A stretch of 64,000 nt of DNA from Escherichia coli (GTDB lineage: Bacteria > Pseudomonadota > Gammaproteobacteria > Enterobacterales > Enterobacteriaceae), in NCBI RefSeq assembly GCF_030384885.1, contig NZ_CP128615.1; one strand, 5' to 3'. Positions within the stretch are counted from its first letter, which is position 1. Each line of letters starts with the position of its first letter. The notes below the pieces were generated by a model. That model was not told the origin of the DNA. It did no database searches and worked only from the letters and a program-made list of their open reading frames with translations. Below, piece by piece: positions 23,903 through 45,597 of this stretch. The translations under genes and the position numbers were made by a program.

Positions 23903-24959
23903 GGCTTTGTTGAATAAATCGAACTTTTGCTGAGTTGAAGGATCAGATCACGCATCCTCCCGACAACACAGACCATTCCGTGGCAAAGCAAAAGTTCAGA
24001 ATCACCAACTGGTCCACCTACAACAAAGCTCTCATCAACCGTGGCTCCCTCACTTTCTGGCTGGATGATGGGGCGATTCAGGCCTGGTATGAGTCGGCAA
24101 CGCCTTCATCACGGGGAAGGCCCCAGCGCTATTCTGACCTTGCCATCACGACTGTGCTGGTCATTAAACGCGTATTCAGGCTGACCCTGCGCGCTGCGCA
24201 GGGCTTTATTGATTCCATTTTTACACTGATGAATGTTCCGTTGCGCTGCCCGGATTACAGCTGTGTCAGCAGGCGGGCAAAGTCGGTTAACGTCAGTTTC
24301 AAAACGTTCACCCGGGGTGAAATCGCGCATCTGGTGATTGATTCCACCGGGCTGAAGGTCTTTGGTGAAGGCGAGTGGAAAGTCAAAAAGCATGGCCAGG
24401 AACGCCGTCGTATATGGCGAAAGTTGCATCTGGCAGTTGACAGCAACACACATGAAATCATCTGTGCAGACCTGTCGCTGAACAATGTGACGGACTCAGA
24501 AGCCTTCCCGGGTCTTATCCGGCAGACTCACAGAAAAATCAGGGCAGCATCGGCAGACGGCGCTTACGACACCCGGCTCTGTCACGATGAACTGCGGCGT
24601 AAGAAAATCAGCGCGCTTATCCCTCCCCGAAAAGGTGCGGGTTACTGGCCCGGTGAATATGCAGACCGTAACCGTGCAGTGGCTAATCAGCGAATGACCG
24701 GGAGTAATGCGCGGTGGAAATGGACAACAGATTACAACCGTCGCTCGATAGCGGAAACGGCGATGTACCGGGTAAAACAGCTGTTCGGGGGTTCACTGAC
24801 GCTGCGTGACTACGATGGTCAGGTTGCGGAGGCTATGGCCCTGGTACGAGCGCTGAACAAAATGACGAAAGCAGGTATGCCTGAAAGCGTGCGTATTGCC
24901 TGAAAACACAACCCGCTACGGGGGAGACTTACCCGAAATCTGATTTATTCAACAAAGCC
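23903..24959 (+). mobile_element. IS903-like (IS5 family) copy 1, 1057 bp, intact
   Basis: 18-bp IRs GGCTTTGTTGAATAAATC at both ends; no 9-bp target duplication. Confidence 0.9.
23935..24903 (+). CDS. IS903-like DDE transposase
   Basis: 322-aa ORF ...[28 protein letters not shown]... Confidence 0.9.
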
Positions 24960-25112
24960 AGATGGAATAGCCCCGCTCGGTGATTTGGCGGACAGCTTCT
25001 TCCTTAAATTCAGGGGTAAAACGTGGTGTGCCCATAGACTATGACCTGCTCCCCGTTGATTAGTACACCCCGATGTTAGTAATGTCTTCATAAGCCACAT
25101 GAGGACATCCCC

Positions 25113-25376
25113 ATGAAGAAGCGTTTTTCCGACGAACAGATCATCAGTATTCTCCGCGAAGCCGAAGCTGGGGTACCCGCCCGTGAACTCTGCCGCAAGC
25201 ATGCCATTTCCGATGCCACGTTTTACACCTGGCGTAAGAAGTATGGCGGTATGGAGGTGCCTGAAGTTAAGCGCCTGAAGTCGCTTGAGGAAGAGAACGC
25301 CAGACTCAAGAAGCTGCTTGCCGAAGCCATGCTGGATAAAGAGGCGCTTCAGGTGGCTCTTGGGCGAAAGTACTGA
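25113..25376 (+). CDS. IS3-family transposase OrfA
   Basis: 87-aa ORF MKKRFSDEQIISILREAEAGVPARELCRKHAISDATFYTWRKKYGG... Confidence 0.85.
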   Translation: MKKRFSDEQIISILREAEAGVPARELCRKHAISDATFYTWRKKYGGMEVPEVKRLKSLEEENARLKKLLAEAMLDKEALQVALGRKY

Positions 25377-25399
25377 CGACAGACCAGAAGCGGGAAGCC

Positions 25400-25624
25400 G
25401 TGATGCTGATGTGTGATGCGACCGGTCTGTCGCAACGTCGTGCCTGCAGGCTTACAGGTTTGTCCCTGTCGACCTGCCGCTATGAGGCTCACCGTCCGGC
25501 TGCTGATGCGCATTTATCAGGGCGCATCACTGAGCTGGCACTGGAGCGCAGGCGTTTTGGCTACCGTCGTATTTGGCAATTGCTGCGCCGTGAAGGGCTT
25601 CATGTTAATCATAAGCGCGTGTAG
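25400..25624 (+). pseudogene. IS3-family transposase OrfB, N-terminal fragment only
   Basis: 74-aa ORF ending at the truncation point. Confidence 0.7.
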
Positions 25625-25873
25625 TGATGCGGACTACGACGTGCGTTTGGTCCAGGACTGCTGCTACGACCCGGATCGGGATGCCCACGAAGCTCTGTTG
25701 CGTTCCGGGTTCGGCGGACGTGTACAGGTCGTGTAATTTTCGGGCCTCGCATGATCGCGGCCATAGCCGCAGGTGGATTGGTGCGAGGCAGGGCCAGTCC
25801 AAGTCAGGGTGCGGTCATCGCGGCGCCTGCAACTCTCAAAAACCCATCGCCGTAGCGGAGGTCTTGTAATCGC

Positions 25874-26758
25874 ATGTCATTACGCACGCCCGATTTATTG
25901 TTCACAGCGATAGCACCTGCCATTTGGGGCAGCACCTACATTGTCACCACCCAATACCTGCCGAACTTCTCACCGATGACGGTCGCGATGCTGCGGGCGT
26001 TGCCGGCGGGTTTATTGCTCGTGATGATCGTCCGACAGATTCCAACGGGAATCTGGTGGATGCGCATCTTCATCCTCGGCGCACTTAATATTTCGCTATT
26101 CTGGAGCTTGTTGTTTATTTCGGTCTACCGCCTGCCGGGCGGGGTCGCGGCGACGGTAGGCGCTGTGCAGCCGCTGATGGTCGTGTTCATCTCTGCCGCT
26201 CTGCTAGGTAGCCCGATACGATTGATGGCGGTCCTGGGGGCTATTTGCGGAACTGCGGGCGTGGCGCTGTTGGTGTTGACACCAAACGCAGCGCTAGATC
26301 CTGTCGGCGTCGCAGCGGGCCTGGCGGGGGCGGTTTCCATGGCGTTCGGAACCGTGCTGACCCGCAAGTGGCAACCTCCCGTGCCTCTGCTCACCTTTAC
26401 CGCCTGGCAACTGGCGGCCGGAGGACTTCTGCTCGTTCCAGTAGCTTTAGTGTTTGATCCGCCAATCCCGATGCCTACAGGAACCAATGTTCTCGGCCTG
26501 GCGTGGCTCGGCCTGATCGGAGCGGGTTTAACCTACTTCCTTTGGTTCCGGGGGATCTCGCGACTCGAACCTACAGTTGTTTCCTTACTGGGCTTTCTCA
26601 GCCCGGGGACCGCCGTGTTGCTAGGATGGTTGTTCTTGGATCAGACGCTGAGTGCGCTTCAAATCATCGGCGTCCTGCTCGTGATCGGGAGTATCTGGCT
26701 GGGCCAACGTTCCAACCGCACTCCTAGGGCGCGTATAGCTTGCCGGAAGTCGCCTTGA
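25874..26758 (+). CDS. EamA/DMT-family transporter (PecM-like)
   Basis: 294-aa multi-TM ORF adjacent to tetA(A), as in Tn1721. Confidence 0.8.
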   Translation: MSLRTPDLLFTAIAPAIWGSTYIVTTQYLPNFSPMTVAMLRALPAGLLLVMIVRQIPTGIWWMRIFILGALNISLFWSLLFISVYRLPGGVAATVGAVQPLMVVFISAALLGSPIRLMAVLGAICGTAGVALLVLTPNAALDPVGVAAGLAGAVSMAFGTVLTRKWQPPVPLLTFTAWQLAAGGLLLVPVALVFDPPIPMPTGTNVLGLAWLGLIGAGLTYFLWFRGISRLEPTVVSLLGFLSPGTAVLLGWLFLDQTLSALQIIGVLLVIGSIWLGQRSNRTPRARIACRKSP

Positions 26759-26789
26759 CCCGCATGGCATAGGCCTATCGTTTCCACGA

Positions 26790-27989
26790 TCAGCGATCGG
26801 CTCGTTGCCCTGCGCCGCTCCAAAGCCCGCGACGCAGCGCCGGCAGGCAGAGCAAGTAGAGGGCAGCGCCTGCAATCCATGCCCACCCGTTCCACGTTGT
26901 TATAGAAGCCGCATAGATCGCCGTGAAGAGGAGGGGTCCGACGATCGAGGTCAGGCTGGTGAGCGCCGCCAGTGAGCCTTGCAGCTGCCCCTGACGTTCC
27001 TCATCCACCTGCCTGGACAACATTGCTTGCAGCGCCGGCATTCCGATGCCACCCGAAGCAAGCAGGACCATGATCGGGAACGCCATCCATCCCCGTGTCG
27101 CGAAGGCAAGCAGGATGTAGCCTGTGCCGTCGGCAATCATTCCGAGCATGAGTGCCCGCCTTTCGCCGAGCCGGGCGGCTACAGGGCCGGTGATCATTGC
27201 CTGGGCGAGTGAATGCAGAATGCCAAATGCGGCAAGCGAAATGCCGATCGTGGTCGCGTCCCAGTGAAAGCGATCCTCGCCGAAAATGACCCAAAGCGCG
27301 GCCGGCACCTGTCCGACAAGTTGCATGATGAAGAAGACCGCCATCAGGGCGGCGACGACGGTCATGCCCCGGGCCCACCGGAACGAAGCGAGCGGGTTGA
27401 GAGCCTCCCGGCGTAACGGCCGGCGTTCGCCTTTGTGCGACTCCGGCAAAAGGAAACAGCCCGTCAGGAAATTGAGGCCGTTCAAGGCTGCCGCGGCGAA
27501 GAACGGAGCGTGGGGGGAGAAACCGCCCATCAGCCCACCGAGCACAGGTCCCGCGACCATCCCGAACCCGAAACAGGCGCTCATGAAGCCGAAGTGCCGC
27601 GCGCGCTCATCGCCATCAGTGATATCGGCAATATAAGCGCCGGCTACCGCCCCAGTCGCCCCGGTGATGCCGGCCACGATCCGCCCGATATAGAGAACCC
27701 AAAGGAAAGGCGCCGTCGCCATGATGGCGTAGTCGACAGCAGCGCCGGCCAGCGAGACGAGCAAGACCGGCCGCCGCCCGAAACGATCCGACAGCGCGCC
27801 CAGCACAGGTGCGCAGGCAAATTGCATCAACGCATACAGCGCCAGCAGAATGCCATAGTGGGCGGTGACGTCGTTCGAGTGAACCAGATCGCGCAGGAGG
27901 CCCGGCAGCACCGGCATAATCAGGCCGATGCCGACAGCGTCGAGCGCGACAGTGCTCAGAATTACGATCAGGGGTCTGTTGGGTTTCAC
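26790..27989 (-). CDS. tetA: tetracycline efflux MFS transporter TetA(A)
   Basis: 399 aa from GTG start (VKPNRPLIVILSTVALDAVGIGLIMPVLPGLL...); the ORF-track start at 28064 is an upstream extension. Confidence 0.9.
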   Translation of the reverse strand: MKPNRPLIVILSTVALDAVGIGLIMPVLPGLLRDLVHSNDVTAHYGILLALYALMQFACAPVLGALSDRFGRRPVLLVSLAGAAVDYAIMATAPFLWVLYIGRIVAGITGATGAVAGAYIADITDGDERARHFGFMSACFGFGMVAGPVLGGLMGGFSPHAPFFAAAALNGLNFLTGCFLLPESHKGERRPLRREALNPLASFRWARGMTVVAALMAVFFIMQLVGQVPAALWVIFGEDRFHWDATTIGISLAAFGILHSLAQAMITGPVAARLGERRALMLGMIADGTGYILLAFATRGWMAFPIMVLLASGGIGMPALQAMLSRQVDEERQGQLQGSLAALTSLTSIVGPLLFTAIYAASITTWNGWAWIAGAALYLLCLPALRRGLWSGAGQRADR

Positions 27990-28094
27990 GTCTGGCCTCC
28001 GGACCAGCCTCCGCTGGTCCGATTGAACGCGCGGATTCTTTATCACTGATAAGTTGGTGGACATATTATGTTTATCAGTGATAAAGTGTCAAGC

Positions 28095-28745
28095 ATGACA
28101 AAGTTGCAGCCGAATACAGTGATCCGTGCCGCCCTGGACCTGTTGAACGAGGTCGGCGTAGACGGTCTGACGACACGCAAACTGGCGGAACGGTTGGGGG
28201 TTCAGCAGCCGGCGCTTTACTGGCACTTCAGGAACAAGCGGGCGCTGCTCGACGCACTGGCCGAAGCCATGCTGGCGGAGAATCATACGCATTCGGTGCC
28301 GAGAGCCGACGACGACTGGCGCTCATTTCTGATCGGGAATGCCCGCAGCTTCAGGCAGGCGCTGCTCGCCTACCGCGATGGCGCGCGCATCCATGCCGGC
28401 ACGCGACCGGGCGCACCGCAGATGGAAACGGCCGACGCGCAGCTTCGCTTCCTCTGCGAGGCGGGTTTTTCGGCCGGGGACGCCGTCAATGCGCTGATGA
28501 CAATCAGCTACTTCACTGTTGGGGCCGTGCTTGAGGAGCAGGCCGGCGACAGCGATGCCGGCGAGCGCGGCGGCACCGTTGAACAGGCTCCGCTCTCGCC
28601 GCTGTTGCGGGCCGCGATAGACGCCTTCGACGAAGCCGGTCCGGACGCAGCGTTCGAGCAGGGACTCGCGGTGATTGTCGATGGATTGGCGAAAAGGAGG
28701 CTCGTTGTCAGGAACGTTGAAGGACCGAGAAAGGGTGACGATTGA
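28095..28745 (+). CDS. tetR: tetracycline repressor TetR(A)
   Basis: MTKLQPNTVIRAALDLLNEVGVDGLTTRKLAERLGVQQPALYWHF...; divergent from tetA. Confidence 0.9.
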   Translation: MTKLQPNTVIRAALDLLNEVGVDGLTTRKLAERLGVQQPALYWHFRNKRALLDALAEAMLAENHTHSVPRADDDWRSFLIGNARSFRQALLAYRDGARIHAGTRPGAPQMETADAQLRFLCEAGFSAGDAVNALMTISYFTVGAVLEEQAGDSDAGERGGTVEQAPLSPLLRAAIDAFDEAGPDAAFEQGLAVIVDGLAKRRLVVRNVEGPRKGDD

Positions 28746-29043
28746 TCAGGACCGCTGCCGGAGCGCAACCCACTCACTACAGCAGAGCCATGTAGACAAC
28801 ATCCCCTCCCCCTTTCCACCGCGTCAGACGCCCGTAGCAGCCCGCTACGGGCTTTTTCATGCCCTGCCCTAGCGTCCAAGCCTCACGGCCGCGCTCGGCC
28901 TCTCTGGCGGCCTTCTGGCGCTCCTGCTGCGGCGTCCGCTCGTGGGCCGTGGCGCGGGTCCGCGCGCCGGCCTCGTGCGCCTGGCGCTCGCGGGCGAGGT
29001 CCAGGGCGGCCGTCTTCACGTTCTGCCTTGCGCAGATGAGATA

Positions 29044-29081
29044 GGGGAGCCCGCAGAATTCGGAAAAAATCGTACGCTAAG
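29044..29081. repeat. Tn1721 internal 38-bp inverted repeat
   Basis: GGGGAGCCCGCAGAATTCGGAAAAAATCGTACGCTAAG, overlapping tnpA stop. Confidence 0.8.
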
Positions 29082-32043
29082 GTTTTCCGGGCATCCGTAA
29101 GGGCCGAAACTTCCCGTCTTCCAGTCTGCGGCTCTGCCGCCAGACGTAATCGCCGGTTAGGTTGATGTGCTCCCAGCCCAGCGGCGACAGGAATTGCAGC
29201 AGCTCGCCGTCCACCGGCTTGCCGGCCTCGACCAACCCCTGGGTGGCGCGTTCCAGGTACACCGTGTTCCACAGCACGATAGCCGCCGTCACCAGGTTGA
29301 GGCCGCTGGCCCGGTAGCGCTGCTGCTCGAAGCTCCGATCCCTGATTTCCCCAAGGCGGTTGAAGAACACCGCCCTGGCCAGCGAGTTGCGCGCCTCACC
29401 TTTGTTCAGGCCGGCATGCACGCGGCGGCGCAGTTCAACACTTTGCAGCCAGTCCAGGATGAACAGCGTGCGCTCGATCCGGCCCAGCTCGCGCAGGGCC
29501 ACGGCCAGTCCGTTCTGGCGCGGGTAGCTGCCGAGCTTGCGCAGCATCAGCGAGGCGGTGACGGTGCCCTGCTTGATCGAGCTGGCCAGGCGCAGGATGT
29601 CGTCCCAGTGGGCACGCACGTGCTTGATGTTCAGGGTGCCGCCGATCAGCGGGCGCAACGTCGGGTAGGCTTGCACGCCCTGCGGCACGTACAGCTTGGT
29701 TTCGCCGAGGTCGCGGATGCGCGGCGCGAAGCGGAAGCCTAGCAGGTGCATCAGGGCAAAGACGTGATCGGTGAAGCCGGCCGTGTCGGTGTAGTGCTCC
29801 TCGATCCGCAGGTCGGACTCGTGGTACAGCAGGCCGTCGAGCACATAGGTGGAATCGCGGACGCCGACATTCACCACGCGGGTGCTGAACGGCGCGTACT
29901 GGTCGGAGATATGGGTATAGAACAGCCGTCCCGGCTCGCTACCGTACTTCGGGTTGACGTGCCCGGTGCTCTCGCCCCGGCCACCCGCGCGGAAGCGCTG
30001 GCCATCGGAGGATGAGGTCGTGCCGTCGCCCCAGTGGGCGGCAAAGGCGTGGCGATACTGGTGGTTGACCAGCTCGGCCAAGGCCGCCGAATAGGTTTCG
30101 TCGCGGATGTGCCAGGCTTGCAGCCAGGACAGCTTGGCGTAGGTCAGGCCGGGGCTCGACTCGGCCATCTTGGTCAGCCCGAGGTTGATCGCATCACCGA
30201 GGATTGCGGACAGCAGCAACGTCCTGTCTTTGGCCTCGGCCCCGTCCTTCAAGTGGGTGAAGTGGCGGCTGAAGCCCGTCCAGTCGTCCACGTCCATCAG
30301 CAGTTCGGTGATCTTGATGCGCGGCAGTAACTGGCTGGTTTGGTCGATCAGCGCCTGCGCCCGATCCGGCACCGCCGCATCCAGCGGGGTGATTTTCAGC
30401 CCTGACTCGGTGAGGATGGCATCGGGCAGCTCGTTGTCCTTGGCCAGGCGGGTGACGGTGGCCAACTGCTCGTCCAGCAGCTGCAAACGCTCTTCCAGGT
30501 ACTGGTCGCTGTTCGGGTTGATCGCCAGGGGCAGGGCCTGCTCGCGCTTGAGTGCGGCGAACTTCTCGGCCGGCAGCAGGTAGTCGTCGAAGTCGCGGAA
30601 CTGCCGCGAGCCCTTGACCCAGATGTCGCCGGAGCGCAGGGCGTTCTTCAGCTCGGACAGGGCGCAGATTTCGTAGAATTTCCGGTCGAGGCCTTCCGGG
30701 GTGATCACCAGCGGCTTCCAGCGCGGCTTGATGAAGGCCGTGGGTGCATCGGCCGGCACCTTGCGCAGGTTGTCGGCGTTCATCTCACGCAGGGTCTGCA
30801 CGGCTGCCAGCACGCCTTGCGCGGCCGGCGCGGCGCGCAGTTCCAGCACCTCCAGCAAGGCCGGCGTGTAACGGCGCAGGGTGGCGAAGTTCTCGCCGAC
30901 CAGGTGCAGGTGGTCGAAGCCTTCCGGCCGGGCCAGCAGCTCGGCCTCGCTGACGCTCTCGGTGAACTCGTCCCAGGGAATCACCGCCTCGATGGCGGCA
31001 TAGGGGTCGCTGCCGCTTTCCTTCGCTTCCAGCAGCGCCTGGCCGATCCTGGAGTACAGGCGCACCTTGTCGTTGATCGCCTTGCCCTGCTTCTGGAACT
31101 GCTGCTGATGCTTGTGCTTCGCGCCGCTGAACAGCTTGACCAGGATGCGGTCATGCAGATCGACCAGCTCATCGATCACGGTCGCGGTGCTCTCCAGCAC
31201 CACGGCGGCCAGGGTCGCGTAGCGGCGCTGCGGCTCGAACTTACCGAGGTCTTTGGGCGTCATCTGCCCACCCTCGCGGGCCAGCTTGAGCAGGCGGTTC
31301 TGGTGGATGTGCCGGCCCAGGCCTTCGGGCAAGTCCACCAACTGAAATGTCTTCAGCCGCTCGATGTGTTCCAGCATGTGCCGAGAGTTGGGTTTCAGCG
31401 GTGCCTGGCGCAGCCAGGTCAACCAGGTGATGCTGCTGCCGGCCTTGAGCTTCAACAGCTCGTCCAGCTTGGCCCGATGCGAGTCCGTGAGTGGTTCGAC
31501 CAGGGCGCGGTAGACCCGCCGATTGGCTCGCGCAATGGCTTCCGAGCAGGCCCGGTCAATCACGCTCAGCGCCGGCAGGATGCGTCGTTTCTGCCGTAGG
31601 CTCTCCAGGGCCTGACCGGCCAGCAGCAAGCCTTTGTCGGTCTGCTGGGCCAGCTCGGTTAGCTCGCGCACCAGGGCGCGGAAGTCGGACAGGCCGAACG
31701 GGGCCAGTTGCAGGTAGGTGCGCAGTTCCTGGGCATGCTCGCGACGGGTCACGTCGCGCTCGCCGTACTTTGCCCAGCTCGCCGGCTCGGCCTGGACTTG
31801 CTTCGCCACCCACAGGATGACCGGCTCGGGCAGCTCGCTGTCGGTTCCCAGCGCGTAACCGGGGTAGCGCAGCAGGCAGAGCTGCACGGCGAAGCCGAGG
31901 CGGTTGGCGTCGCCGCGTCGCTGGCGGATCAGCGACAGGTCGGAGTCGTTGAAGGTGTAGTAGCGGATCAGGTCATCCTGGCTTTCCGGCAGCGCAAGCA
32001 GGGTGTCCCGCTCCGTGGCCGAGAGGATCAAGCGACGCGGCAT
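29077..32043 (-). CDS. tnpA: Tn3-family transposase TnpA (Tn1721-type)
   Basis: 988-aa ORF; C-terminal ...[17 protein letters not shown] motif. Confidence 0.9.
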
Positions 32044-32046
32044 GTG

Positions 32047-34681: not shown

Positions 34682-34715
34682 CTTAATTTCAGTATCTGTT
34701 ATTACAGTTGGGTAT

Positions 34716-35912: not shown

Positions 35913-38798
35913 CTAAGGCTTTGGCCAGCGATATTCTCCGGTGAGATTGATGTGTTCCCATCCGAGCGGCGAAACATGGGCCAAGAGATCGGGCGATAGC
36001 AGCTTTCCATCGCGTTTCTGGTTTGCAACGACCTCGCCGAGCTTCATGGTGTTCCAGAAGATGATGATGGCGGCGAGCAGATTCATGCCGGCGATGCGGT
36101 AATGCTGGCCTTCGGCGGAACGGTCGCGGATTTCACCGCGGCGGTGGAAGCTGATTGCCCGCTTCAGCGCATGATGAGCTTCGCCTTTGTTGAGCCCGAT
36201 CTGGGCACGCCGTTGGAGTTCGGCATCCAGAATCCAGTCGATCATGAACAGGGTGCGCTCGACGCGACCGACTTCCCGCAGGGCTGTCGCGAGCTCGTTC
36301 TGCCGCGGATAGGAGGCGAGTTTCCGCAGAATCTGGCTTGGCGCGACGGTCCCGGCAGCAATGGTGGCGGCGATGCGCAGGATGTCGGGCCAATTGCGCT
36401 CGATCATGGCTTGGTTGACCTTTCCGCCGATCAACGCTCGCAGGTGCGCCGGGGCGGCCGACGGATTGAACGCGTAGAGCCGTTTGGATGGCAGGTCGCG
36501 GATGCGCGGAGCGAACCGGTAGCCGAGAATGGCACATGCGGCAAAGACGTGATCGGTGAAGCCGCCCGTGTCGGTGAACTGCTCGCGGATATGGCGTCCA
36601 GCATCGTTCATCAGCAGGCCATCGAGGATGTAAGGCGCTTCGCTTGCCGTTGCAGGAATCACCTGGGTTGCGAACGGCGCATATTGGTCGGAGACGTGGC
36701 TATAGGCTTTCAGGCCCGGGGTATTGCCATATTTCGCGTTGACCAGGTTCATGGCCTCACCTTGCTCTGTAGCGACGAAGAACTGTCCGTCGCTCGAAGC
36801 CGACGTGCCCATGCCCCAGAACCGGGCCATGGGTAACGCTGCCTGTGCCTCGACCACCATGGCCAGCGCCCGGTCATAGGCTTCGCCCTCGACATGCCAC
36901 CGTCCAATGCGGATCAATTCCCAGAAGGTGTGGGTGTTTGTCGCATCCGCCATTTTGCGCAAGCCGAGGTTGATCCCTTCCGCCAAGATAACGTTCATTA
37001 GCCCGATCCGGTCAGCGCAGGGTGCTCCTGTGCGCAGATGGGTGAACGCTTCGGTGAAGCCGGTCGCCGCATCCACCTCCAGCAGGAGATCGGTGATGCG
37101 CGTGGGCGGGATCTGCTTGTAGAGATCGAGCACCAGATCTTCGGCGCCTGTCGGCGCGGCGGCTTCGAGTTTCTCGATATGCAGAACGCCGTTTTCAATC
37201 GACCCGCCCGGGATCGTGCCTGCGCGAGCGGCACGGCCAAGCTCGCGCAACCGCATGTCGAGGCGAGCTTGCCGGTCTGCCAGCCATTCCTCCGGCCGCA
37301 ATGGCACAGCGAGACGACCGCCTTCCGCGATGGATTGTGCCGGAACGAGTGCGTGTTTCAGATCGCCATAGCGCCGGGACCTAGTAAGCCAGACATCTCC
37401 GGAGCGGAACGCATCGCGCAGATGGAACAGCACCGCGATCTCCCATAGGCGAGCGTCGCCAGCCCTCTGGGCCCGAAGGTGGCGATGCCATTTCGAGCTG
37501 GGCCGCAAGAAGCTGGTCATCGCGGCATCGTTCAAACCGGTACGAAGGGCCGTCACCGCTTCCAGAAGCGGCAGTGCAACGGGCGCAGCTCGCAGATCGA
37601 GCAGGCGCAACATGCGTGGAGCGTATCGGCGGAAGCGGTGATAACCGTCGAGCACATGATTGAGCGGATCGTCGGCCATGGTGGCGGTCAGCCTGGTTGC
37701 CATTGCAACAAGGGTTTTTAAGCCGTCCCACCCTGACCCACTCGCGATGACATCGCCCAGCGGCTGGCCATCATCCTGTGCATCGACCAGGGCGCCCCCG
37801 ATCTCGGCGAAGGATTTCAGGGTGTCACGCACCACCCCCGCTTCGTCTGCGACCTTTGCATGGCAAATACGCTCCGAAGCACGGTAGAGACGGCCGACGA
37901 TCCGGTCGTGGGTTTCGACCACTGCGTCGGCCAACATCGCCTGCCATTCCGAGACGCAAACAGCCAAGATCGCAAGCCGCCTGTCCTCCGGGAGATCGCG
38001 CATGCCGTCGGCATAATACCGTTCACCCTGCCTGCGCAGACGAGTCACCCGATGGGCAGGAACGCCGGCAAGCAGATCCTCGGGGAGATCGATGCGTTGC
38101 AGATATTCGAGCCGGTCGAGCAGCCGGTTGGCCGACGAAGAGTTCGAGCCAGGCTCGAACTGGCGCAGCCACACAAAACGGGTCACCCGATCATCAGCCG
38201 TCTCCTCGAGCAATGCCAGCAACTGTTCTCGGATCGACATAGGCAGCCGACTGGCGATCCTCGTCTCGATGCGTCGCTCGGCATCGACGAGAGCCGCGGC
38301 ACAAAGCCGCTCGATCGTGGATGTCGCGGGAAGGACAGTGCGGGTGCGTCGGCACTCGGCTACGAAGCGACGGGCGATATCCTCGTTCGACACCGCCATC
38401 TCGGCTTCTCGGAACAACCATTCCTTCAGCTCGCTCGCACCACGTCCGGAGAAGGTGCGGAAGCCGTAGAGCCCCCGTAACTCGGCAAGATGCTCGTGCC
38501 GTGTTTCCTCGCGGGCAGCATAGTCTACGAGATCGTCGGCACCCAGGCCAAGCTGCGCTCCGATAAATTCGATGACCTCTGCAGGGATCAGTTCGCCTGG
38601 AGCCAGCACCCGGCCGGGATAGCGCAGGACACACAATTGCAGGGCGAAGCCGAACCTGTTGTGAGCGCGCCGACGCAGCCTGATATGCCCAAGGTCTTCA
38701 TCACTCAGCGTATAGTGCTTGAGCAAATCCGTCTGTGAAGTCGGCAAGCGCAACAGCGCGTCTTTCTGCCGATCGGTTAGAGTGACGCGACGCGGCAT
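35913..38798 (-). CDS. tnpA: Tn3-family transposase TnpA (Tn5393)
   Basis: 961-aa ORF; C-terminal ...[17 protein letters not shown]. Confidence 0.9.
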   Translation of the reverse strand: MPRRVTLTDRQKDALLRLPTSQTDLLKHYTLSDEDLGHIRLRRRAHNRFGFALQLCVLRYPGRVLAPGELIPAEVIEFIGAQLGLGADDLVDYAAREETRHEHLAELRGLYGFRTFSGRGASELKEWLFREAEMAVSNEDIARRFVAECRRTRTVLPATSTIERLCAAALVDAERRIETRIASRLPMSIREQLLALLEETADDRVTRFVWLRQFEPGSNSSSANRLLDRLEYLQRIDLPEDLLAGVPAHRVTRLRRQGERYYADGMRDLPEDRRLAILAVCVSEWQAMLADAVVETHDRIVGRLYRASERICHAKVADEAGVVRDTLKSFAEIGGALVDAQDDGQPLGDVIASGSGWDGLKTLVAMATRLTATMADDPLNHVLDGYHRFRRYAPRMLRLLDLRAAPVALPLLEAVTALRTGLNDAAMTSFLRPSSKWHRHLRAQRAGDARLWEIAVLFHLRDAFRSGDVWLTRSRRYGDLKHALVPAQSIAEGGRLAVPLRPEEWLADRQARLDMRLRELGRAARAGTIPGGSIENGVLHIEKLEAAAPTGAEDLVLDLYKQIPPTRITDLLLEVDAATGFTEAFTHLRTGAPCADRIGLMNVILAEGINLGLRKMADATNTHTFWELIRIGRWHVEGEAYDRALAMVVEAQAALPMARFWGMGTSASSDGQFFVATEQGEAMNLVNAKYGNTPGLKAYSHVSDQYAPFATQVIPATASEAPYILDGLLMNDAGRHIREQFTDTGGFTDHVFAACAILGYRFAPRIRDLPSKRLYAFNPSAAPAHLRALIGGKVNQAMIERNWPDILRIAATIAAGTVAPSQILRKLASYPRQNELATALREVGRVERTLFMIDWILDAELQRRAQIGLNKGEAHHALKRAISFHRRGEIRDRSAEGQHYRIAGMNLLAAIIIFWNTMKLGEVVANQKRDGKLLSPDLLAHVSPLGWEHINLTGEYRWPKP

Positions 38799-38923
38799 AC
38801 ATGTTCCTTTTTCAAAATCTGATAGCGTTCAAGACGCTTTGTTTATGAAGCTGGTTGAGATACATTTCCAGAGGTCAATGCAATCGTGGCCGAAGCGCCG
38901 CCTCAAACCAACGTTTGTGATAC

Positions 38924-39538
38924 ATGCTGATCGGATATGCCCGCGTCTCCAAAGCCGATGGCTCGCAGTCTCTCGACCTGCAGCACGACGCCTTGCGCGC
39001 CGCAGGTGTCGAACGGGACAATATCTATGATGATCTTGCTTCCGGCGGTCGTGATGATCGCCCTGGCTTGACTGCCTGCCTCAAGTCATTGCGTGACGGC
39101 GATGTGCTGGTGGTCTGGAAGCTCGATCGCCTCGGACGATCGCTTGCCCATCTGGTCAACACGGTGAAGGAGCTGTCAGACCGCAAGATCGGCCTGCGGG
39201 TTCTGACTGGAAAGGGCGCTCAGATCGACACCACGACTGCGTCCGGTCGCATGGTGTTCGGAATCTTCGCCACCTTGGCCGAGTTCGAGCGGGATCTGAT
39301 CCGAGAGCGCACCATGGCGGGTCTCGCCTCCGCGAGAGCGCGCGGTCGCAAGGGCGGACGAAAATTCGCGCTCACCAAAGCTCAGGTGCGTCTCGCGCAA
39401 GCCGCCATGGCCCAGCGCGATACTTCAGTTTCCGATCTCTGCAAGGAACTCGGCATCGAGCGCGTCACTCTCTACCGATATGTCGGTCCCAAAGGCGAGC
39501 TCAGAGACCATGGAAAGCATGTTCTCGGACTTACGTAG
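38924..39538 (+). CDS. tnpR: serine resolvase TnpR (Tn5393)
   Basis: 204-aa ORF MLIGYARVSKADGSQSLDLQ... Confidence 0.9.
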   Translation: MLIGYARVSKADGSQSLDLQHDALRAAGVERDNIYDDLASGGRDDRPGLTACLKSLRDGDVLVVWKLDRLGRSLAHLVNTVKELSDRKIGLRVLTGKGAQIDTTTASGRMVFGIFATLAEFERDLIRERTMAGLASARARGRKGGRKFALTKAQVRLAQAAMAQRDTSVSDLCKELGIERVTLYRYVGPKGELRDHGKHVLGLT

Positions 39539-39581
39539 TGGACTTGCCTCGGTTTCGTTCCGGTCTTTTTGAGAGCATTAT

Positions 39582-39878
39582 TTGTTATCAAGGAGACCAT
39601 ATATGTCATTAAAGCATAGTGATGAATTTAAGCGTGATGCAGTTCGCATAGCACTCACTAGTGGCTTAACACGCCGTCAAGTTGCGTCAGATTTAAGTAT
39701 TGGGCTTTCCACGCTTGGGAAATGGATCGCATCAATTTCCGATGAAACTAAAATTCCTACCCAAGACACTGATCTTCTGCGTGAGAATGAACGTTTACGC
39801 AAAGAGAACCGTATCCTTCGGGAGGAGAGGGAGATATTAAAAAAGGCAGCAATATTTTTCGCAGTACAAAAGCTGTGA
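39582..39878 (+). CDS. IS1133 transposase OrfA
   Basis: 98-aa ORF with HTH. Confidence 0.8.
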   Translation: MLSRRPYMSLKHSDEFKRDAVRIALTSGLTRRQVASDLSIGLSTLGKWIASISDETKIPTQDTDLLRENERLRKENRILREEREILKKAAIFFAVQKL

Positions 39879-40732
39879 GATTTCAGTTTATTACGGATTA
39901 CCGTGGCTCTCTCTCACGTTCACGCATATGTCGTTTGATGGGCGTAACAGATCGTGGTTTACGTGCATGGAAACGCCGTCCTCCATCACTGCGCCAGCGT
40001 CGTGATCTTATACTTCTAGCGCATATACGTGAGCAGCATCGGTTGTGTTTGGGGAGCTATGGTAGGCCGCGTATGACAGAAGAGTTGAAAGCGCTGGGCC
40101 TGCAGGTTGGGCAGCGTCGGGTTGGACGTTTGATGCGCCAGAATAACATTACAGTTGTTCGAACGCGTAAATTCAAACGGACAACGGATAGTCATCATAC
40201 CTTCAACATTGCACCGAACCTATTAAAACAAGACTTTAGCGCAAGCGCACCCAACCAGAAATGGGCAGGCGATATCACTTATGTTTGGACCAGAGAAGGA
40301 TGGGTCTATCTTGCTGTTATCCTTGACCTGTATTCCCGTCGCGTGATTGGCTGGGCAACAGGTGATCGATTAAAGCAGGATCTTGCATTAAGGGCACTGA
40401 ATATGGCGTTGGCTTTACGCAAACCACCACCGGGTTGTATTCAACACACAGACCGTGGGAGCCAATATTGCGCTCATGAATATCAAAAGCTACTGCTCAA
40501 ACATCAATTGCTGCCGTCCATGAGCGGGAAAGGCAATTGTTTTGATAACTCCGCAGTAGAAAGCTTCTTTAAATCATTAAAGGCTGAGTTGATTTGGCGC
40601 AGACACTGGCAAACAAGGCGAGATATTGAGATTGCAATCTTCGAATATATAAATGGCTTTTATAATCCACGCCGAAGACATTCAACACTCGGCTGGAAAT
40701 CGCCGGTGGCATTTGAGAAAAAAGCCGCTTAA
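39875..40732 (+). CDS. IS1133 transposase OrfB (DDE/rve)
   Basis: 285-aa ORF; 4-bp overlap with orfA. Confidence 0.8.
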   Translation: MRFQFITDYRGSLSRSRICRLMGVTDRGLRAWKRRPPSLRQRRDLILLAHIREQHRLCLGSYGRPRMTEELKALGLQVGQRRVGRLMRQNNITVVRTRKFKRTTDSHHTFNIAPNLLKQDFSASAPNQKWAGDITYVWTREGWVYLAVILDLYSRRVIGWATGDRLKQDLALRALNMALALRKPPPGCIQHTDRGSQYCAHEYQKLLLKHQLLPSMSGKGNCFDNSAVESFFKSLKAELIWRRHWQTRRDIEIAIFEYINGFYNPRRRHSTLGWKSPVAFEKKAA

Positions 40733-40838
40733 AATGAGAGATAGACCGGAACACAACCGGTGCAAGTCCATAGCAACTCGTTTCTTTTCGCAGGTTGAGC
40801 CACCTCCGCGCTTCATCAGAAAACTGAAGGAACCTCCA

Positions 40839-41642
40839 TTGAATCGAACTAATATTTTTTTTGGTGAATCGCATTCTGACTGGTTGCCTGTCAGAGGCGG
40901 AGAATCTGGTGATTTTGTTTTTCGACGTGGTGACGGGCATGCCTTCGCGAAAATCGCACCTGCTTCCCGCCGCGGTGAGCTCGCTGGAGAGCGTGACCGC
41001 CTCATTTGGCTCAAAGGTCGAGGTGTGGCTTGCCCCGAGGTGATCAACTGGCAGGAGGAACAGGAGGGTGCATGCTTGGTGATAACGGCAATTCCGGGAG
41101 TACCGGCGGCTGATCTGTCTGGAGCGGATTTGCTCAAAGCGTGGCCGTCAATGGGGCAGCAACTTGGCGCTGTTCACAGCCTATCGGTTGATCAATGTCC
41201 GTTTGAGCGCAGGCTGTCGCGAATGTTCGGACGCGCCGTTGATGTGGTGTCCCGCAATGCCGTCAATCCCGACTTCTTACCGGACGAGGACAAGAGTACG
41301 CCGCAGCTCGATCTTTTGGCTCGTGTCGAACGAGAGCTACCGGTGCGGCTCGACCAAGAGCGCACCGATATGGTTGTTTGCCATGGTGATCCCTGCATGC
41401 CGAACTTCATGGTGGACCCTAAAACTCTTCAATGCACGGGTCTGATCGACCTTGGGCGGCTCGGAACAGCAGATCGCTATGCCGATTTGGCACTCATGAT
41501 TGCTAACGCCGAAGAGAACTGGGCAGCGCCAGATGAAGCAGAGCGCGCCTTCGCTGTCCTATTCAATGTATTGGGGATCGAAGCCCCCGACCGCGAACGC
41601 CTTGCCTTCTATCTGCGATTGGACCCTCTGACTTGGGGTTGA
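40839..41642 (+). CDS. strA: aminoglycoside 3''-phosphotransferase APH(3'')-Ib (streptomycin resistance)
   Basis: 267 aa from TTG start (NRTNIFFGESHSDWLPVRGGESGDFVFRRGDGHAFAKIAP...); the ORF-track start at 40653 is an upstream extension. Confidence 0.9.
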   Translation: MNRTNIFFGESHSDWLPVRGGESGDFVFRRGDGHAFAKIAPASRRGELAGERDRLIWLKGRGVACPEVINWQEEQEGACLVITAIPGVPAADLSGADLLKAWPSMGQQLGAVHSLSVDQCPFERRLSRMFGRAVDVVSRNAVNPDFLPDEDKSTPQLDLLARVERELPVRLDQERTDMVVCHGDPCMPNFMVDPKTLQCTGLIDLGRLGTADRYADLALMIANAEENWAAPDEAERAFAVLFNVLGIEAPDRERLAFYLRLDPLTWG

Positions 41643-42478
41643 TGTTCATGCCGCCTGTTTTTCCTGCTCATTGGCACGTTTCGCAACCTGTTCTCATTGC
41701 GGACACCTTTTCCAGCCTCGTTTGGAAAGTTTCATTGCCAGACGGGACTCCTGCAATCGTCAAGGGATTGAAACCTATAGAAGACATTGCTGATGAACTG
41801 CGCGGGGCCGACTATCTGGTATGGCGCAATGGGAGGGGAGCAGTCCGGTTGCTCGGTCGTGAGAACAATCTGATGTTGCTCGAATATGCCGGGGAGCGAA
41901 TGCTCTCTCACATCGTTGCCGAGCACGGCGACTACCAGGCGACCGAAATTGCAGCGGAACTAATGGCGAAGCTGTATGCCGCATCTGAGGAACCCCTGCC
42001 TTCTGCCCTTCTCCCGATCCGGGATCGCTTTGCAGCTTTGTTTCAGCGGGCGCGCGATGATCAAAACGCAGGTTGTCAAACTGACTACGTCCACGCGGCG
42101 ATTATAGCCGATCAAATGATGAGCAATGCCTCGGAACTGCGTGGGCTACATGGCGATCTGCATCATGAAAACATCATGTTCTCCAGTCGCGGCTGGCTGG
42201 TGATAGATCCCGTCGGTCTGGTCGGTGAAGTGGGCTTTGGCGCCGCCAATATGTTCTACGATCCGGCTGACAGAGACGACCTTTGTCTCGATCCTAGACG
42301 CATTGCACAGATGGCGGACGCATTCTCTCGTGCGCTGGACGTCGATCCGCGTCGCCTGCTCGACCAGGCGTACGCTTATGGGTGCCTTTCCGCAGCTTGG
42401 AACGCGGATGGAGAAGAGGAGCAACGCGATCTAGCTATCGCGGCCGCGATCAAGCAGGTGCGACAGACGTCATACTAG
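41642..42478 (+). CDS. strB: aminoglycoside 6-phosphotransferase APH(6)-Id (streptomycin resistance)
   Basis: 278 aa MFMPPVFPAHWHVSQPVLIADTF...; overlaps strA stop. Confidence 0.9.
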   Translation: MFMPPVFPAHWHVSQPVLIADTFSSLVWKVSLPDGTPAIVKGLKPIEDIADELRGADYLVWRNGRGAVRLLGRENNLMLLEYAGERMLSHIVAEHGDYQATEIAAELMAKLYAASEEPLPSALLPIRDRFAALFQRARDDQNAGCQTDYVHAAIIADQMMSNASELRGLHGDLHHENIMFSSRGWLVIDPVGLVGEVGFGAANMFYDPADRDDLCLDPRRIAQMADAFSRALDVDPRRLLDQAYAYGCLSAAWNADGEEEQRDLAIAAAIKQVRQTSY

Positions 42479-42584
42479 ATATCAAGCGACTTCTCCTATC
42501 CCCTGGGAACACATCAATCTTACCGGAGAATATCGTTGGCCAAAGCCTTAGCGTAGGATTTCGCCCTCTCCCGCAAACGACCCC

Positions 42585-43486
42585 ATAGCCTCCGCAACCT
42601 GACCATCGTAGTCACGCAGCGTCAGTGAACCCCCGAACAGCTGTTTTACCCGGTACATCGCCGTTTCCGCTATCGAGCGACGGTTGTAATCTGTTGTCCA
42701 TTTCCACCGCGCATTACTCCCGGTCATTCGCTGATTAGCCACTGCACGGTTACGGTCTGCATATTCACCGGGCCAGTAACCCGCACCTTTTCGGGGAGGG
42801 ATAAGCGCGCTGATTTTCTTACGCCGCAGTTCATCGTGACAGAGCCGGGTGTCGTAAGCGCCGTCTGCCGATGCTGCCCTGATTTTTCTGTGAGTCTGCC
42901 GGATAAGACCCGGGAAGGCTTCTGAGTCCGTCACATTGTTCAGCGACAGGTCTGCACAGATGATTTCATGTGTGTTGCTGTCAACTGCCAGATGCAACTT
43001 TCGCCATATACGACGGCGTTCCTGGCCATGCTTTTTGACTTTCCACTCGCCTTCACCAAAGACCTTCAGCCCGGTGGAATCAATCACCAGATGCGCGATT
43101 TCACCCCGGGTGAACGTTTTGAAACTGACGTTAACCGACTTTGCCCGCCTGCTGACACAGCTGTAATCCGGGCAGCGTAGCGGAACGTTCATCAGAGAAA
43201 AAATGGAATCAATAAAGCCCTGCGCAGCGCGCAGGGTCAGCCTGAATACGCGTTTAATGACCAGCACAGTCGTGATGGCAAGGTCAGAATAGCGCTGAGG
43301 TCTGCCTCGTGAAGAAGGTGTTGCTGACTCATACCAGGCCTGAATAGCTTCATCATCCAGCCAGAAAGTTATGGAGCCACGGTTGATGAGGGCTTTATTG
43401 TAGGTGGGCCAGTTGGTTATTTTGAACTTTTGCTTTGCCACGGAACGGTCTGCGTTGTCGGGAAGATGCGTGATCTGATCCTTCAA
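42585..43486 (-). pseudogene. IS903-like transposase, C-terminus replaced by read-through into Tn5393 IR
   Basis: ORF identical to the other copies up to ...VAEAM, then diverges (GSFAGEGEILR) at the Tn5393 junction. Confidence 0.8.
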
Positions 43487-43857
43487 CTCAGCAAAAGTTC
43501 GATTTATTCAACAAAGCCCATTCAGTCCTCAATTTGTGCATTTTTTAAACGAAAAAAGGGTGTCTAATACGGTGAAATCATAGTATTACCAAAGTAATAA
43601 ATAAAAAGTTATTTAAATCAGTAATTTAGATTTGATTTGTAATACCTGGGTAATACCGCAGCATGGCTAAATTTTGTTTTTTTTCTTTTAAATCAGTGCG
43701 ATAGCGTGATTTATCACGCTGCGTTAGGTGTATAGCAGGTTAAGGGATAAAAAATCATCTTTTTTTGGTAGGGCGATCTCCGTAGGTTAAGGGGCATTTG
43801 GCTAAAAAGCGTCCTATTCTTTGATGGTCATGCTTGCATGACCATCTGAGCAACCAA

Positions 43858-44006
43858 AAACTACAGATAAACTACAGATAAACTACAAAAAACGTTTTGC
43901 CTTAGTGTTGTAAGACTACAAATAGACTACAATAAAACTACAAATAAACTACAAAAAACGTGACAGACTACAAATAGACTACAATAAAACTACAGATAAA
44001 CTACAA
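43858..44006. repeat. array of ~11-bp ACTACA(A/G)ATA direct repeats (iteron- or centromere-like)
   Basis: at least 12 copies of (A/G)ACTACA(A/G)AT(A) in 150 bp, preceded by a perfect palindrome GATGGTCATG-cttg-CATGACCATC at 43821-43846. Confidence 0.6.
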
Positions 44007-44066
44007 AACTCGATTGACCCCTTCTTACGAGTGTTGTAGAGTCATTTTCATACAACGGAGGGGGTT

Positions 44067-44246
44067 ATGAATAAACCAGCAGATCTGAAACCCCGCAACT
44101 TATCGGCTGCTGTCAGATTGCGCCTAAATGAAATCGAGAACTGGCTGGACAGAGGGCTAACGCGGCATGAAATTGCTGAAATCCTCGACAGCGAATACAG
44201 CTTTTCGGTAACAGCCAAAGGGCTTGAGATGGATGGCACTGTATAG
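44067..44246 (+). CDS. small hypothetical protein (59 aa), possible DNA-binding regulator
   Basis: strong RBS GGAGGGGG 6 bp upstream; MNKPADLKPRNLSAAVRLRLNEIENWLDRGLTRHEIAEILD...; below the ORF-track length cutoff. Confidence 0.45.
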   Translation: MNKPADLKPRNLSAAVRLRLNEIENWLDRGLTRHEIAEILDSEYSFSVTAKGLEMDGTV

Positions 44247-44465
44247 AACGCGGCAAAACCGAAAAAATGTATTGCACAATACGCATGATAAGAGTAGCGC
44301 GAAGGGTGCAGCGGAAAGTGTATTGCACAATACACAACCGTCTGAGCCTGAAGTGCAGGAAAGTAAAAAAGCAGAGAGTCCCGGCATTATTGATAAAGAA
44401 TTCTTCAAGAAAATCGGTGAGAATTTCGACCCTAAGAAGTTCAACAAAAAATTCTGAGGTGATTT

Positions 44466-44540
44466 ATGAAAGTAGCGGTAATTAATTACAGTGGCAGTGT
44501 TCGTAAAACCTTAATTTCATCTTACCTGTTAGCCCCGCGC
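44466..44540 (+). pseudogene. 5' fragment of a gene (MKVAVINYSGSVRKTLISSYLLAPR), truncated by IS903 copy 3
   Basis: RBS GAGGTGA then ATG; the N-terminus resembles the start of a ParA-like NTPase but the Walker A is not canonical. Confidence 0.35.
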
Positions 44541-45597
44541 GGCTTTGTTGAATAAATCAGATTTCGGGTAAGTCTCCCCCGTAGCGGGTTGTGTTTTCAG
44601 GCAATACGCACGCTTTCAGGCATACCTGCTTTCGTCATTTTGTTCAGCGCTCGTACCAGGGCCATAGCCTCTGCAACCTGACCATCGTAGTCACGCAGTG
44701 TCAGTGAACCTCCGAACAGCTGTTTTACCCGGTACATCGCCGTTTCCGCTATCGAGCGACGGTTGTAATCTGTTGTCCATTTCCACCGCGCATTACTCCC
44801 GGTCAGCCGCTGATTCGCAACAGCACGGTTACGGTCTGCATATTCACCGGGCCAGTAACCCGCGCCTTTTCGGGGCGGGATAAGCGCGCTGATTTTCTTA
44901 CGCCGCAGTTCATCGTGACAGAGTTGGGTGTCGTAAGCGCCGTCTGCCGATGCTGCCCTGATTTTTCTGTGAGTCTGCCGGATAAGACCCGGGAAGGCTT
45001 CTGAGTCCGTCACATTGTTCAGCGACAGGTTTGCACAGATGATTTCATGTGTGTTGCTGTCAACTGCCAGATGCAACTTTCGCCATATACGACGGCGTTC
45101 CTGGCCATGCTTTTTGACTTTCCATTCGCCTTCACCAAAGACCTTCAGCCCGGTGGAATCAATCACCAGATGCGCGATTTCACCCCGGGTGAACGTTTTG
45201 AAACTGACATTAACCGACTTTGCGCGCTTGCTGACACTGGTGTAATCCGGGCAGCGCAACGGAACATTCATCAGTGTAAAAATGGAATCAATAAAACCCT
45301 GTGCAGCCCGCAGGGTCAACCTGAACACGCGTTTAATGACCAGAACGGTGGTGATGGCGAGATCAGAATAGCGCTGAGGTCTTCCCCGTGATGAAGGCGT
45401 TGCCGACTCATACCAGGCCTGAATAGCTTCATCATCCAGCCAGAAAGTTATGGAGCCACGGTTGATGAGGGCTTTATTGTAGGTGGGCCAGTTGGTTATT
45501 TTGAACTTTTGCTTTGCCACGGAATGGTCTGCGTTGTCGGGAAGATGCGTGATCTGATCCTTCAACTCAGCAAAAGTTCGATTTATTCAACAAAGCC
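44541..45597 (-). mobile_element. IS903-like copy 3, 1057 bp, intact
   Basis: 18-bp IRs at both ends; same orientation as copy 2. Confidence 0.9.
44597..45565 (-). CDS. IS903-like DDE transposase
   Basis: 322-aa ORF nearly identical to copy 1. Confidence 0.9.
   Translation of the reverse strand: MKDQITHLPDNADHSVAKQKFKITNWPTYNKALINRGSITFWLDDEAIQAWYESATPSSRGRPQRYSDLAITTVLVIKRVFRLTLRAAQGFIDSIFTLMNVPLRCPDYTSVSKRAKSVNVSFKTFTRGEIAHLVIDSTGLKVFGEGEWKVKKHGQERRRIWRKLHLAVDSNTHEIICANLSLNNVTDSEAFPGLIRQTHRKIRAASADGAYDTQLCHDELRRKKISALIPPRKGAGYWPGEYADRNRAVANQRLTGSNARWKWTTDYNRRSIAETAMYRVKQLFGGSLTLRDYDGQVAEAMALVRALNKMTKAGMPESVRIA

Follow-up and report, generated by a model that had tools for sequence, protein, structure and literature searches.

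What does it mean when several copies of an insertion sequence (IS) lie around resistance genes and none of them is flanked by a target duplication? The question is raised by a 64,000-nucleotide (nt) stretch of Escherichia coli DNA (contig NZ_CP128615.1, assembly GCF_030384885.1; the whole stretch is called the window below), in which three IS903-like copies are found between positions 23903 and 45597, close to tet(A) and strAB. IS903 makes 9-bp target duplications, and also adjacent deletions and cointegrates (PMC12670165, PMC11708052). An earlier sequence-only reading saw no duplications here, proposed assembly by IS903-mediated recombination or deletion, and suggested that the inverted pair of copies could mobilise tet(A) as a composite transposon. 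We consider it probable that the IS903 copies mark, as relics, the seams of a mosaic multiresistance region on an incompatibility group R (IncR)-type plasmid, and that the resistance genes did not arrive in a transposon of which these copies form the ends.

The window carries three IS903-group elements of 1057 bp each, on which a repeat search, a MAFFT alignment and direct extraction agree, as they do with the positions and orientations first read from the sequence. For copy 2 this length is what is left after subtraction of Tn5393 and one copy of the duplication that it made. A fourth piece, which lies outside 23903-45597, is a short left end. The elements are as follows.

23903-24959, plus strand: IS903-group copy 1, intact transposase, IS102-like/IS903-like mosaic
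35752-35879, minus strand: copy 2, right-end piece (IS nt 930-1057)
42585-43518, minus strand: copy 2, left piece (IS nt 1-934), transposase cut
44541-45597, minus strand: IS903-group copy 3, intact transposase, the IS903B of the IncR 'N region' (PMC9412624)
3547-3608, plus strand: fourth IS903/IS102-like piece, a 62-bp left end 100% identical to nt 1-62 of copy 1

Copy 1 is inverted relative to copies 2 and 3, which are direct repeats of each other, and all three have the perfect 18-bp ends GGCTTTGTTGAATAAATC. The transposases of copies 1 and 3 match the IS5-family DDE transposase profile NF033579 over its entire length (351-353 bits, positions 1-289 of 289), while that of copy 2 ends at profile position 279 of 289, where it is interrupted by Tn5393. 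Identity to the IS102 of pSC101 is 95.6% for copy 1, 94.1% for copy 2 and 94.0% for copy 3; members of the IS903 group have been defined as exceeding about 94% nucleotide identity to one of IS903, IS102 and IS602 (PMC12670165). Judged by length, inverted repeats (IRs), transposase and 94-96% identity to IS102, all three copies belong to the IS903 group within the IS5 family, and annotation in related plasmids likewise names them IS903 or IS903B family. The absence of a 9-bp duplication bears on the history of the copies and not on their family membership. The 62-bp piece is cut by a 41-bp IS2 end, followed by an ISEc15-like IS3-family element, and adjoins vapBC; it corresponds to 'locus A' of IncR plasmids (PMC9412624).

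Read in the orientation of the IS, the left and right flanking 9-mers are GACCGTACC and AGATGGAAT for copy 1, GACTGAATG and CGTAGGCAA for copy 2, and AACACAGAC and GCGCGGGGC for copy 3. No 9-bp duplication was found in any of the 12 pairings of a left with a right flank, with the left flank of the 62-bp end included, and the best pairing agreed at 5/9 positions; the first observation that no flanks match thus stood up to complete re-inspection. The 3547-3608 piece has the left flank ACATGAATG, to which no right flank corresponds. No 9-bp duplication appeared at the outer flanks of the three conceivable composites either, whether from copy 1 to copy 2 (GACCGTACC against CATTCAGTC), from copy 1 to copy 3 (GACCGTACC against GTCTGTGTT) or from copy 2 to copy 3 (TTGCCTACG against GTCTGTGTT). 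Duplications with shifted boundaries, or shared between copies, were sought in 25 + 25 nt, where the longest common word was 5 nt, which is typical of random pairs of windows. The method is able to detect duplications, since a fourth IS903 in the close relative AR_0011 (NZ_CP024857.1) is flanked by a perfect one, ACGGGAGAC. The repeat finder extended the homology of copies 1 and 2 by 16 nt into their left flanks, with only 10/16 matches, and this was judged to be chance or a weak target preference. The IS102 of pSC101 (L012, 6916-7972) is likewise without a 9-bp duplication (ACTGAAAGT against GGGTGTGGT).

The DNA on the two sides of each copy was compared with related plasmids, using PLSDB and the 5,426 genomes of E. 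coli RefSeq. The flanking segments are the following.

23399-23902, minus strand: left flank of copy 1, 3' part of amiF (formamidase) and downstream spacer; annotated as an amiF pseudogene in AREA_497
24960-25041, minus strand: right flank of copy 1, 82-bp 5' fragment of an ISEc15-like IS3-family element, 74/79 nt identical to the IS3-family element at about 3700
35143-35751, plus strand: right flank of copy 2, IncFII(K)-type DNA from downstream of repA
35668-35751: SRAP gene, codons 1-28, truncated by the copy 2 junction
43519-44540, plus strand: left flank of copy 2 and right flank of copy 3, a 1022-bp IncN-like remnant with the origin of transfer (oriT), stbA and truncated stbB
45598-45888, plus strand: left flank of copy 3, ori-distal fragment of IncFII(K) type, with 95% identity to p17-15-KPC and pKp_Goe_588-1

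The six flanks derive from at least four sources, namely Klebsiella accessory DNA, IS3-family elements, IncFII(K)-type DNA and IncN-like DNA. Uninterrupted versions of all three targets exist in relatives. The site of copy 1 is found as an intact amiF-urtEDCBA cluster in pKP062-1 (...GCAGACCGTACC followed directly by CTCGCCGAAG), that of copy 2 as an uninterrupted SRAP gene in pF13_1 and pKP91, and for copy 3 p17-15-KPC and pKp_Goe_588-1 have the IncFII(K) ori-distal region whole. A search of the 64-kb window for the other halves of amiF, SRAP and the IncFII(K) site showed that it lacks them. Since one half of each target is absent, and the other flank comes from a different type of replicon or element, each IS903 marks a novel joint. 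The 290 bp directly beside copy 3 proved to be of IncFII(K) type and not IncN DNA. Beyond them the right side of copy 3 is IncN-like, as is the spacer between copies 2 and 3; when mapped on R46 the two are inverted and about 11.5 kb apart.

The amiF junction is the most informative of the joints, because the same left flank is found with at least three different right sides. The junction between truncated amiF and IS903 is followed by the truncated ISEc15-like element in the window, AREA_497 and AR_0011; by a different right flank in pPK8568-156kb and p1658/97, where the IS is identical to copy 1; and by a third right flank in pIS04_68, where the IS resembles copy 3 at nt 55-734. It is also found with a truncated IS, cut at nt 350 in pHNTH9F11-1 and at nt 541 in the ROWM plasmid. 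Such a comparison of flanks with related plasmids had been proposed as the check in the first reading.

The IS copies are themselves mosaic. The three differ at 54 sites, and the affiliation of copy 2 changes abruptly along its length: all 14 informative sites at nt 55-221 place it with copy 3 (IS903B-like), and all 29 at nt 236-926 place it with copy 1. The breakpoint has a maximum chi-square of 43, which was reached in 0 of 10,000 permutations. From nt 342 on copy 2 is identical to copy 1, so that the two share 716 identical nt in inverted orientation. In pLAO36 the IS903 elements at the copy 2 and copy 3 loci have the same flanks and different internal mosaics. Copy 1 is identical to the IS102 of pSC101 at nt 1-168 and 720-1057 and about 8% divergent between, and on such alignments the labels 'IS903' and 'IS102' describe mosaics. 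The patterns show homologous exchange among IS903 copies, and part of this exchange may be old. A reciprocal crossover between copies 1 and 2 was rejected as the source of the mosaic, since its other hybrid product is lacking and no duplication reappears when the inversion is reversed. A better fit would be gene conversion, or an exchange involving copies from outside the window.

These results can be assembled into a history of three steps, the last of which comprises the insertion of Tn5393 and the join within Tn1721 described below. First, the IS903 elements would have inserted in the usual way, each making a 9-bp duplication and each in a separate replicon or accessory segment. The targets would have been the Klebsiella plasmid gene amiF for copy 1, the SRAP gene lying downstream of a repA of IncFII(K) type for copy 2, and an ori-distal region, also of IncFII(K) type, for copy 3. 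Each copy would then have had the DNA on one of its sides replaced, which would join unrelated DNA and leave half of the duplication. For this replacement we favour RecA-dependent recombination, or gene conversion, between IS903 copies whose plasmids were co-resident or cointegrated, with transposase-driven adjacent deletion or cointegrate formation as a second contributor, probably at some of the joints. The flank comparisons support rearrangement at IS903 after insertion, rather than simple insertion, as the explanation for the absent duplications, and the mosaics point to homologous exchange as the route for some of the flank replacement at least. The original proposal of IS903-mediated recombination or deletion is thus upheld as regards rearrangement after insertion, for which the empty targets, the variants of the amiF junction and the mosaics all speak.

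The location of the resistance genes is a separate matter from the joints. They lie in two transposons, which together with their neighbours are listed below.

25042-25623, plus strand: second IS3-family element, annotated as ISSen4 in RefSeq, present as a 5' fragment that is cut at 25623
25624-34682, minus strand: truncated Tn1721, 9.06 kb, IRR-II end missing; includes the 3' end of a hydrolase gene
25874-26758: pecM, in truncated Tn1721
26790-27989: tet(A), in truncated Tn1721
28095-28745: tetR(A), in truncated Tn1721
29044-34682: complete Tn1722 (tnpA, tnpR, mcp, both 38-bp IRs), inside truncated Tn1721
34683-34716: unassigned 34-bp stretch between Tn1721 and the IS1 end
34717-34788, plus strand: IS1 left-end fragment, 72 bp, read directly
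34789-35144, minus strand: Tn3-family (TnEc1-like) IR and 3' remnant of tnpA, matching annotated TnEc1
35880-42584, plus strand: complete Tn5393, 6705 bp (tnpA, tnpR, IS1133, strA, strB), inserted in copy 2
45868-47011, minus strand: IncN iterons (37-bp unit) and repA remnant
47012-47779, minus strand: full-length IS1X3 at the edge of the N region, with IncR backbone next
22686-23398, plus strand: IS1-family element, inverted relative to IS1X3 at 47012-47724; annotated as IS1 family in relatives

The carrier of tet(A) is a truncated Tn1721 with an intact Tn1722: the left inverted repeat (IRL, 34645-34682) and IRR-I (29044-29081) are present, IRR-II is not, and the tet end is cut at 25624 by the IS3-family fragment. 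Tn5393 has IRs at 35880 and 42584, tnpA, tnpR, strA, strB and IS1133, and the 5-bp duplication ATAGC at 35875-79 and 42585-89. It entered copy 2 by an ordinary Tn3-family event, removing the C-terminus of the transposase, and this is shown directly by the duplication. The claim that the IS903 copies frame tet(A) and strAB accordingly needs correction. There are copies at the positions given, whereas strAB lies inside copy 2, within Tn5393, and the framing and mobilisation of tet(A) by IS903 is not supported. The contents listed between the copies are all present, with the refinement that the IS3 material comes from two elements and not one, and the 1-kb plasmid-module remnant between copies 2 and 3 is the 1022-bp IncN-like segment. 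To its right lies the N region (PMC9412624), with IS903B, 37-bp IncN iterons, the repA remnant and IS1X3 upstream of the IncR backbone; the array has 15.5 well-conserved 37-bp iteron copies at 46089-46661, and degenerate copies over 45941-46772.

Other plasmids hold the window's resistance region in two separate blocks. The left block (BREX, IS1, truncated amiF, copy 1, IS3 fragments and truncated Tn1721) is present in the IncFII plasmid of E. coli AREA_497, which matches window 23400-34682 in one piece at 100% identity, the homology breaking off precisely at the Tn1721 IRL. The right block extends from the Tn1721 IRL through truncated SRAP, copy 2 with its Tn5393, stbA, copy 3, the IncN iterons and IS1X3 to the IncR backbone. 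It is present in the IncR plasmid AR_0011, which matches window 32674-39270 and 40284-46661 and is scrambled by IS26 and a group II intron. Since the blocks exist separately and their boundary is at Tn1721, the tet(A) and strAB blocks meet inside a shared Tn1721 and not at IS903. The present array would then have arisen when two pre-existing blocks were joined there, by homologous or res-site recombination, as the block boundaries suggest. AR_0011 and the window show 28 differences over 32674-39270, of which 27 fall in 85 bp (32681-32765), in the tnpR-mcp intergenic res region. The clustering suggests a hybrid res site, a possible trace of resolvase-mediated exchange between Tn1721-family copies.

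The right block has a history of its own. pLAO36 has the state before Tn5393, with truncated SRAP, an uninterrupted IS903, stbA and a further IS903, and IncX1 plasmids hold window 40650/41767-47775 between IS26 and IS1. The junction from the strB-side IR through copy 2 and stbA to copy 3 is found in 585 PLSDB records and that from truncated SRAP through copy 2 to Tn5393 in 179, while the junction of truncated amiF, copy 1 and the IS3 fragments is found in 2. The outer flanks of the copy 2-copy 3 structure are constant where examined (both in AR_0011 and pLAO36; the right one in two IncX1 plasmids, IS26 having removed the left). In IncR and IncX1 plasmids the block is bounded by IS26 and IS1, and by this comparison the structure is a passenger of other IS elements. 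The whole unit, taken as at least 80% in one place, was found in no PLSDB or E. coli RefSeq record.

Two side observations concern the flanks of this structure. The outer segments 35143-35751 and 45598-45888 come from the same neighbourhood of about 0.5 kb downstream of an IncFII(K)-type repA, and the segments matching them are adjacent in p17-15-KPC and pKp_Goe_588-1. In the window they have opposite orientations, with about 160 bp between their breakpoints, and where they overlap the identity is only about 80%. This arrangement may reflect two different IncFII(K) parents or an old inversion. The spacer at 43519-44540 matches R46 19991-21007 at 80-89% identity and keeps an IncN/IncW-type oriT-like region (R46 19991-20312), a block of direct repeats of about 11 bp (43850-44010), stbA and the first 25 codons of stbB. 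A candidate nic-like motif was picked out by eye near 43715-43750, which we take to resemble those of R388 and R46. Such a spacer might permit mobilisation of an otherwise non-conjugative IncR-type plasmid by IncN or IncW helpers.

Three other explanations have to be weighed. The most consequential is that the span from copy 1 to copy 2 (19.6 kb) or from copy 1 to copy 3 (21.7 kb) is a functional composite of the Tn903 kind, which brought tet(A), with or without strAB, or still moves tet(A), the intact Tn1722, strAB and Tn5393 together. Composites of IS903-group elements certainly exist (Tn903, Tn602 and TnaphA1-pIE545; PMC12670165), copies 1 and 2 are inverted as are the IS903 copies in Tn903, and the terminal structures are in place, with all outer 18-bp IRs intact and the transposases of copies 1 and 3 full-length. 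The evidence from relatives nevertheless points the other way. No unit is flanked by a 9-bp duplication, and the whole unit is found at the 80% level in no PLSDB or E. coli RefSeq record; its two halves occur apart in other backbones and meet inside Tn1721; and the copy 2-copy 3 block moves between IncR and IncX1 plasmids with IS26 and IS1 at its edges. The IS903 transposase is in addition mainly cis-acting, and composite transposition declines with length. We therefore regard a working composite as very improbable, and the proposal that the inverted pair could mobilise tet(A) is not borne out. Were it true, IS903-group elements would be an under-appreciated route for the movement of very large resistance blocks. 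Even less probable, to the point of being almost negligible, is that misjoining of 1-kb repeats during assembly produced false junctions without duplications. It is well known that assemblies can go wrong at such repeats, here three near-identical ones of 1 kb together with those of IS1 and the Tn3 family, but the copies can be told apart by their 54 differing sites, and each of the junctions is seen again in complete plasmids that were sequenced independently, with 99.4-100% identity in the nearest relatives.

A more serious competitor, although still an unlikely one in our view, is that the joints were made mainly by the IS903 transposase, through adjacent deletion or intramolecular replicative transposition, with little homologous recombination. 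Adjacent deletions and cointegrates are documented for IS903, the DNA past each target is simply missing, and pPK8568 and p1658/97, with an IS identical to copy 1, the same left flank and another right flank, look like products of deletion from the right end. However, an adjacent deletion keeps the flanks of one parental molecule, whereas here the flanks of every copy come from different replicon types; and where copy 3 has IncN DNA near both of its sides, the two segments are inverted and distant on R46. Deletion also leaves unexplained the sharp mosaic breakpoint in copy 2 and the copy 3-like IS behind the amiF junction in pIS04_68, and no copy has a left flank identical to the right flank of another, which would be the signature of inversion by intramolecular transposition. 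Homologous recombination between two IS elements never parts an IS end from its own flank, so that a simple swap of partners among the three copies predicts a matching left and right flank, and none matches.

Some further points count against the reading of the copies as relics at seams with exchanged flanks. No relative was found that has any of the three copies with both original flanks and the 9-bp duplication, and the order of events is inferred. Adjacent deletion by the transposase also yields one-sided junctions, and where the IS is unchanged, as between pPK8568 and the window, it is indistinguishable from homologous recombination. Mosaicism is widespread in the IS903 group, copy 1 itself being an IS102/IS903 mosaic, and some of the exchange may long predate these plasmids. 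Lastly, AREA_497 and the window are identical across the presumed crossover in Tn1721, so that no sequence difference marks its position. With these points taken into account, we maintain that relics at the seams describe the copies best, and that today they act mainly as portable homology of about 1 kb.

Several features of the wider window were seen in passing. A 518-bp direct repeat, 90% identical, at 2668-3184 and 58836-59349 in the vapBC region brackets an IncR-like segment made up of the backbone and the resistance region, while 1-2650 and 59350-64000 match other plasmids, from E. coli, Shigella and Citrobacter, with genes for an AAA ATPase and a UvrD-like helicase. The pattern suggests that an IncR plasmid was integrated into another plasmid by recombination at vapBC homologues. 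A complete type 1 bacteriophage exclusion (BREX) system is present at 6326-22366 (brxL, pglZ, pglX, brxC, DUF1788, DUF1819 and a WYL regulator), with a DUF262 gene between pglX and brxC. Its neighbours are IS110 on one side and IS1, truncated amiF and copy 1 on the other, and in relatives the BREX module with the copy 1 junction is found on IncF, IncR and IncHI2-type plasmids. The IS1-family elements at 22686-23398 and 47012-47779 are inverted, 95% identical over 713 nt, and bracket a 23.6-kb resistance region; the left one has no recognisable IS1 left end.

The locus shows how multiresistance regions on small-backbone IncR plasmids form: pieces of IncN, IncFII(K) and Klebsiella accessory DNA are joined at IS903, Tn5393 and Tn1722 sit intact inside the resulting patchwork, and whole blocks are exchanged between IncR, IncF and IncX1 plasmids. 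The 1-kb IS903 repeats are likely sites of future inversion, deletion or cointegration, and they are also an assembly hazard. IS903 at seams without duplications is an ordinary feature, present in hundreds of sequenced plasmids, and the mechanisms are textbook ones, so that current understanding is unchanged. In the open-access literature no explicit description of Tn5393 inserted in IS903 was found, only general context on IncR and IS903. The N region, the multi-IS loci, Tn5393 and Tn1721 have all been described, and every junction is present in public plasmids. The whole 22-kb arrangement, which is in no single searched public record, is a new combination of known blocks only.

Comparison with known systems places the locus more precisely. 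Tn903, Tn602 and TnaphA1-pIE545 likewise consist of 1057-bp IS903-group elements around a passenger, inverted in Tn903 and direct in Tn602. The inverted copies 1 and 2 resemble the first arrangement and the direct copies 2 and 3 the second, and as in Tn903-type composites the terminal IRs are intact and at least one transposase is full-length; both pairs nevertheless fail the tests for a transposed composite. The passengers of the named composites are about 1-3 kb, in contrast to 10.8 kb between copies 1 and 2 and 1 kb between copies 2 and 3. Unlike the named composites, the units in the window have no flanking 9-bp duplication, the whole unit was not seen in a second context, and one of the bounding copies is disrupted by Tn5393.

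A close described relative is the IncR plasmid pST1023 (PMC9412624), whose N region, likewise upstream of the IncR backbone, has IS903B adjoining 37-bp IncN iterons, together with a repA remnant and IS1X3. Its multi-IS loci A and B also resemble the window, with a truncated IS102-like end, a truncated IS2 and ISEc15 beside vagCD/vapBC, and a truncated IS1 and truncated TnEc1 again adjoin an IS903B (PMC9412624). The window differs in having copy 2 with its Tn5393 and the IncN-like oriT-stbA piece to the left of the N-region IS903B, and also the block of copy 1 and truncated Tn1721. There are 15.5 well-conserved iteron copies in the window compared to 24.3 reported for pST1023 (PMC9412624), and iteron number is thus variable among N-region plasmids. 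Among sequenced plasmids, AR_0011, pLAO36, AREA_497 and pSG17-135-X between them contain all six IS903 junctions at 99.4-100% identity. They differ from the window in that AR_0011 lacks tet(A) and has the fourth IS903 with its 9-bp duplication, AREA_497 has only the copy 1 block, and the IncX1 plasmids have only the copy 2-copy 3 block.

The overall picture is reminiscent of the pseudo-compound transposons and mosaics formed by IS26, in which IS copies are also found at the joints of resistance modules, target duplications are lacking, and modules reassort between backbones. IS26, unlike the IS903 of the window, has a well-characterised conservative or cointegrate route, and no equivalent targeted mechanism has been established for IS903 (PMC12670165). 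Compared to IS26, the IS903 copies in the window appear to serve mostly as passive homology.

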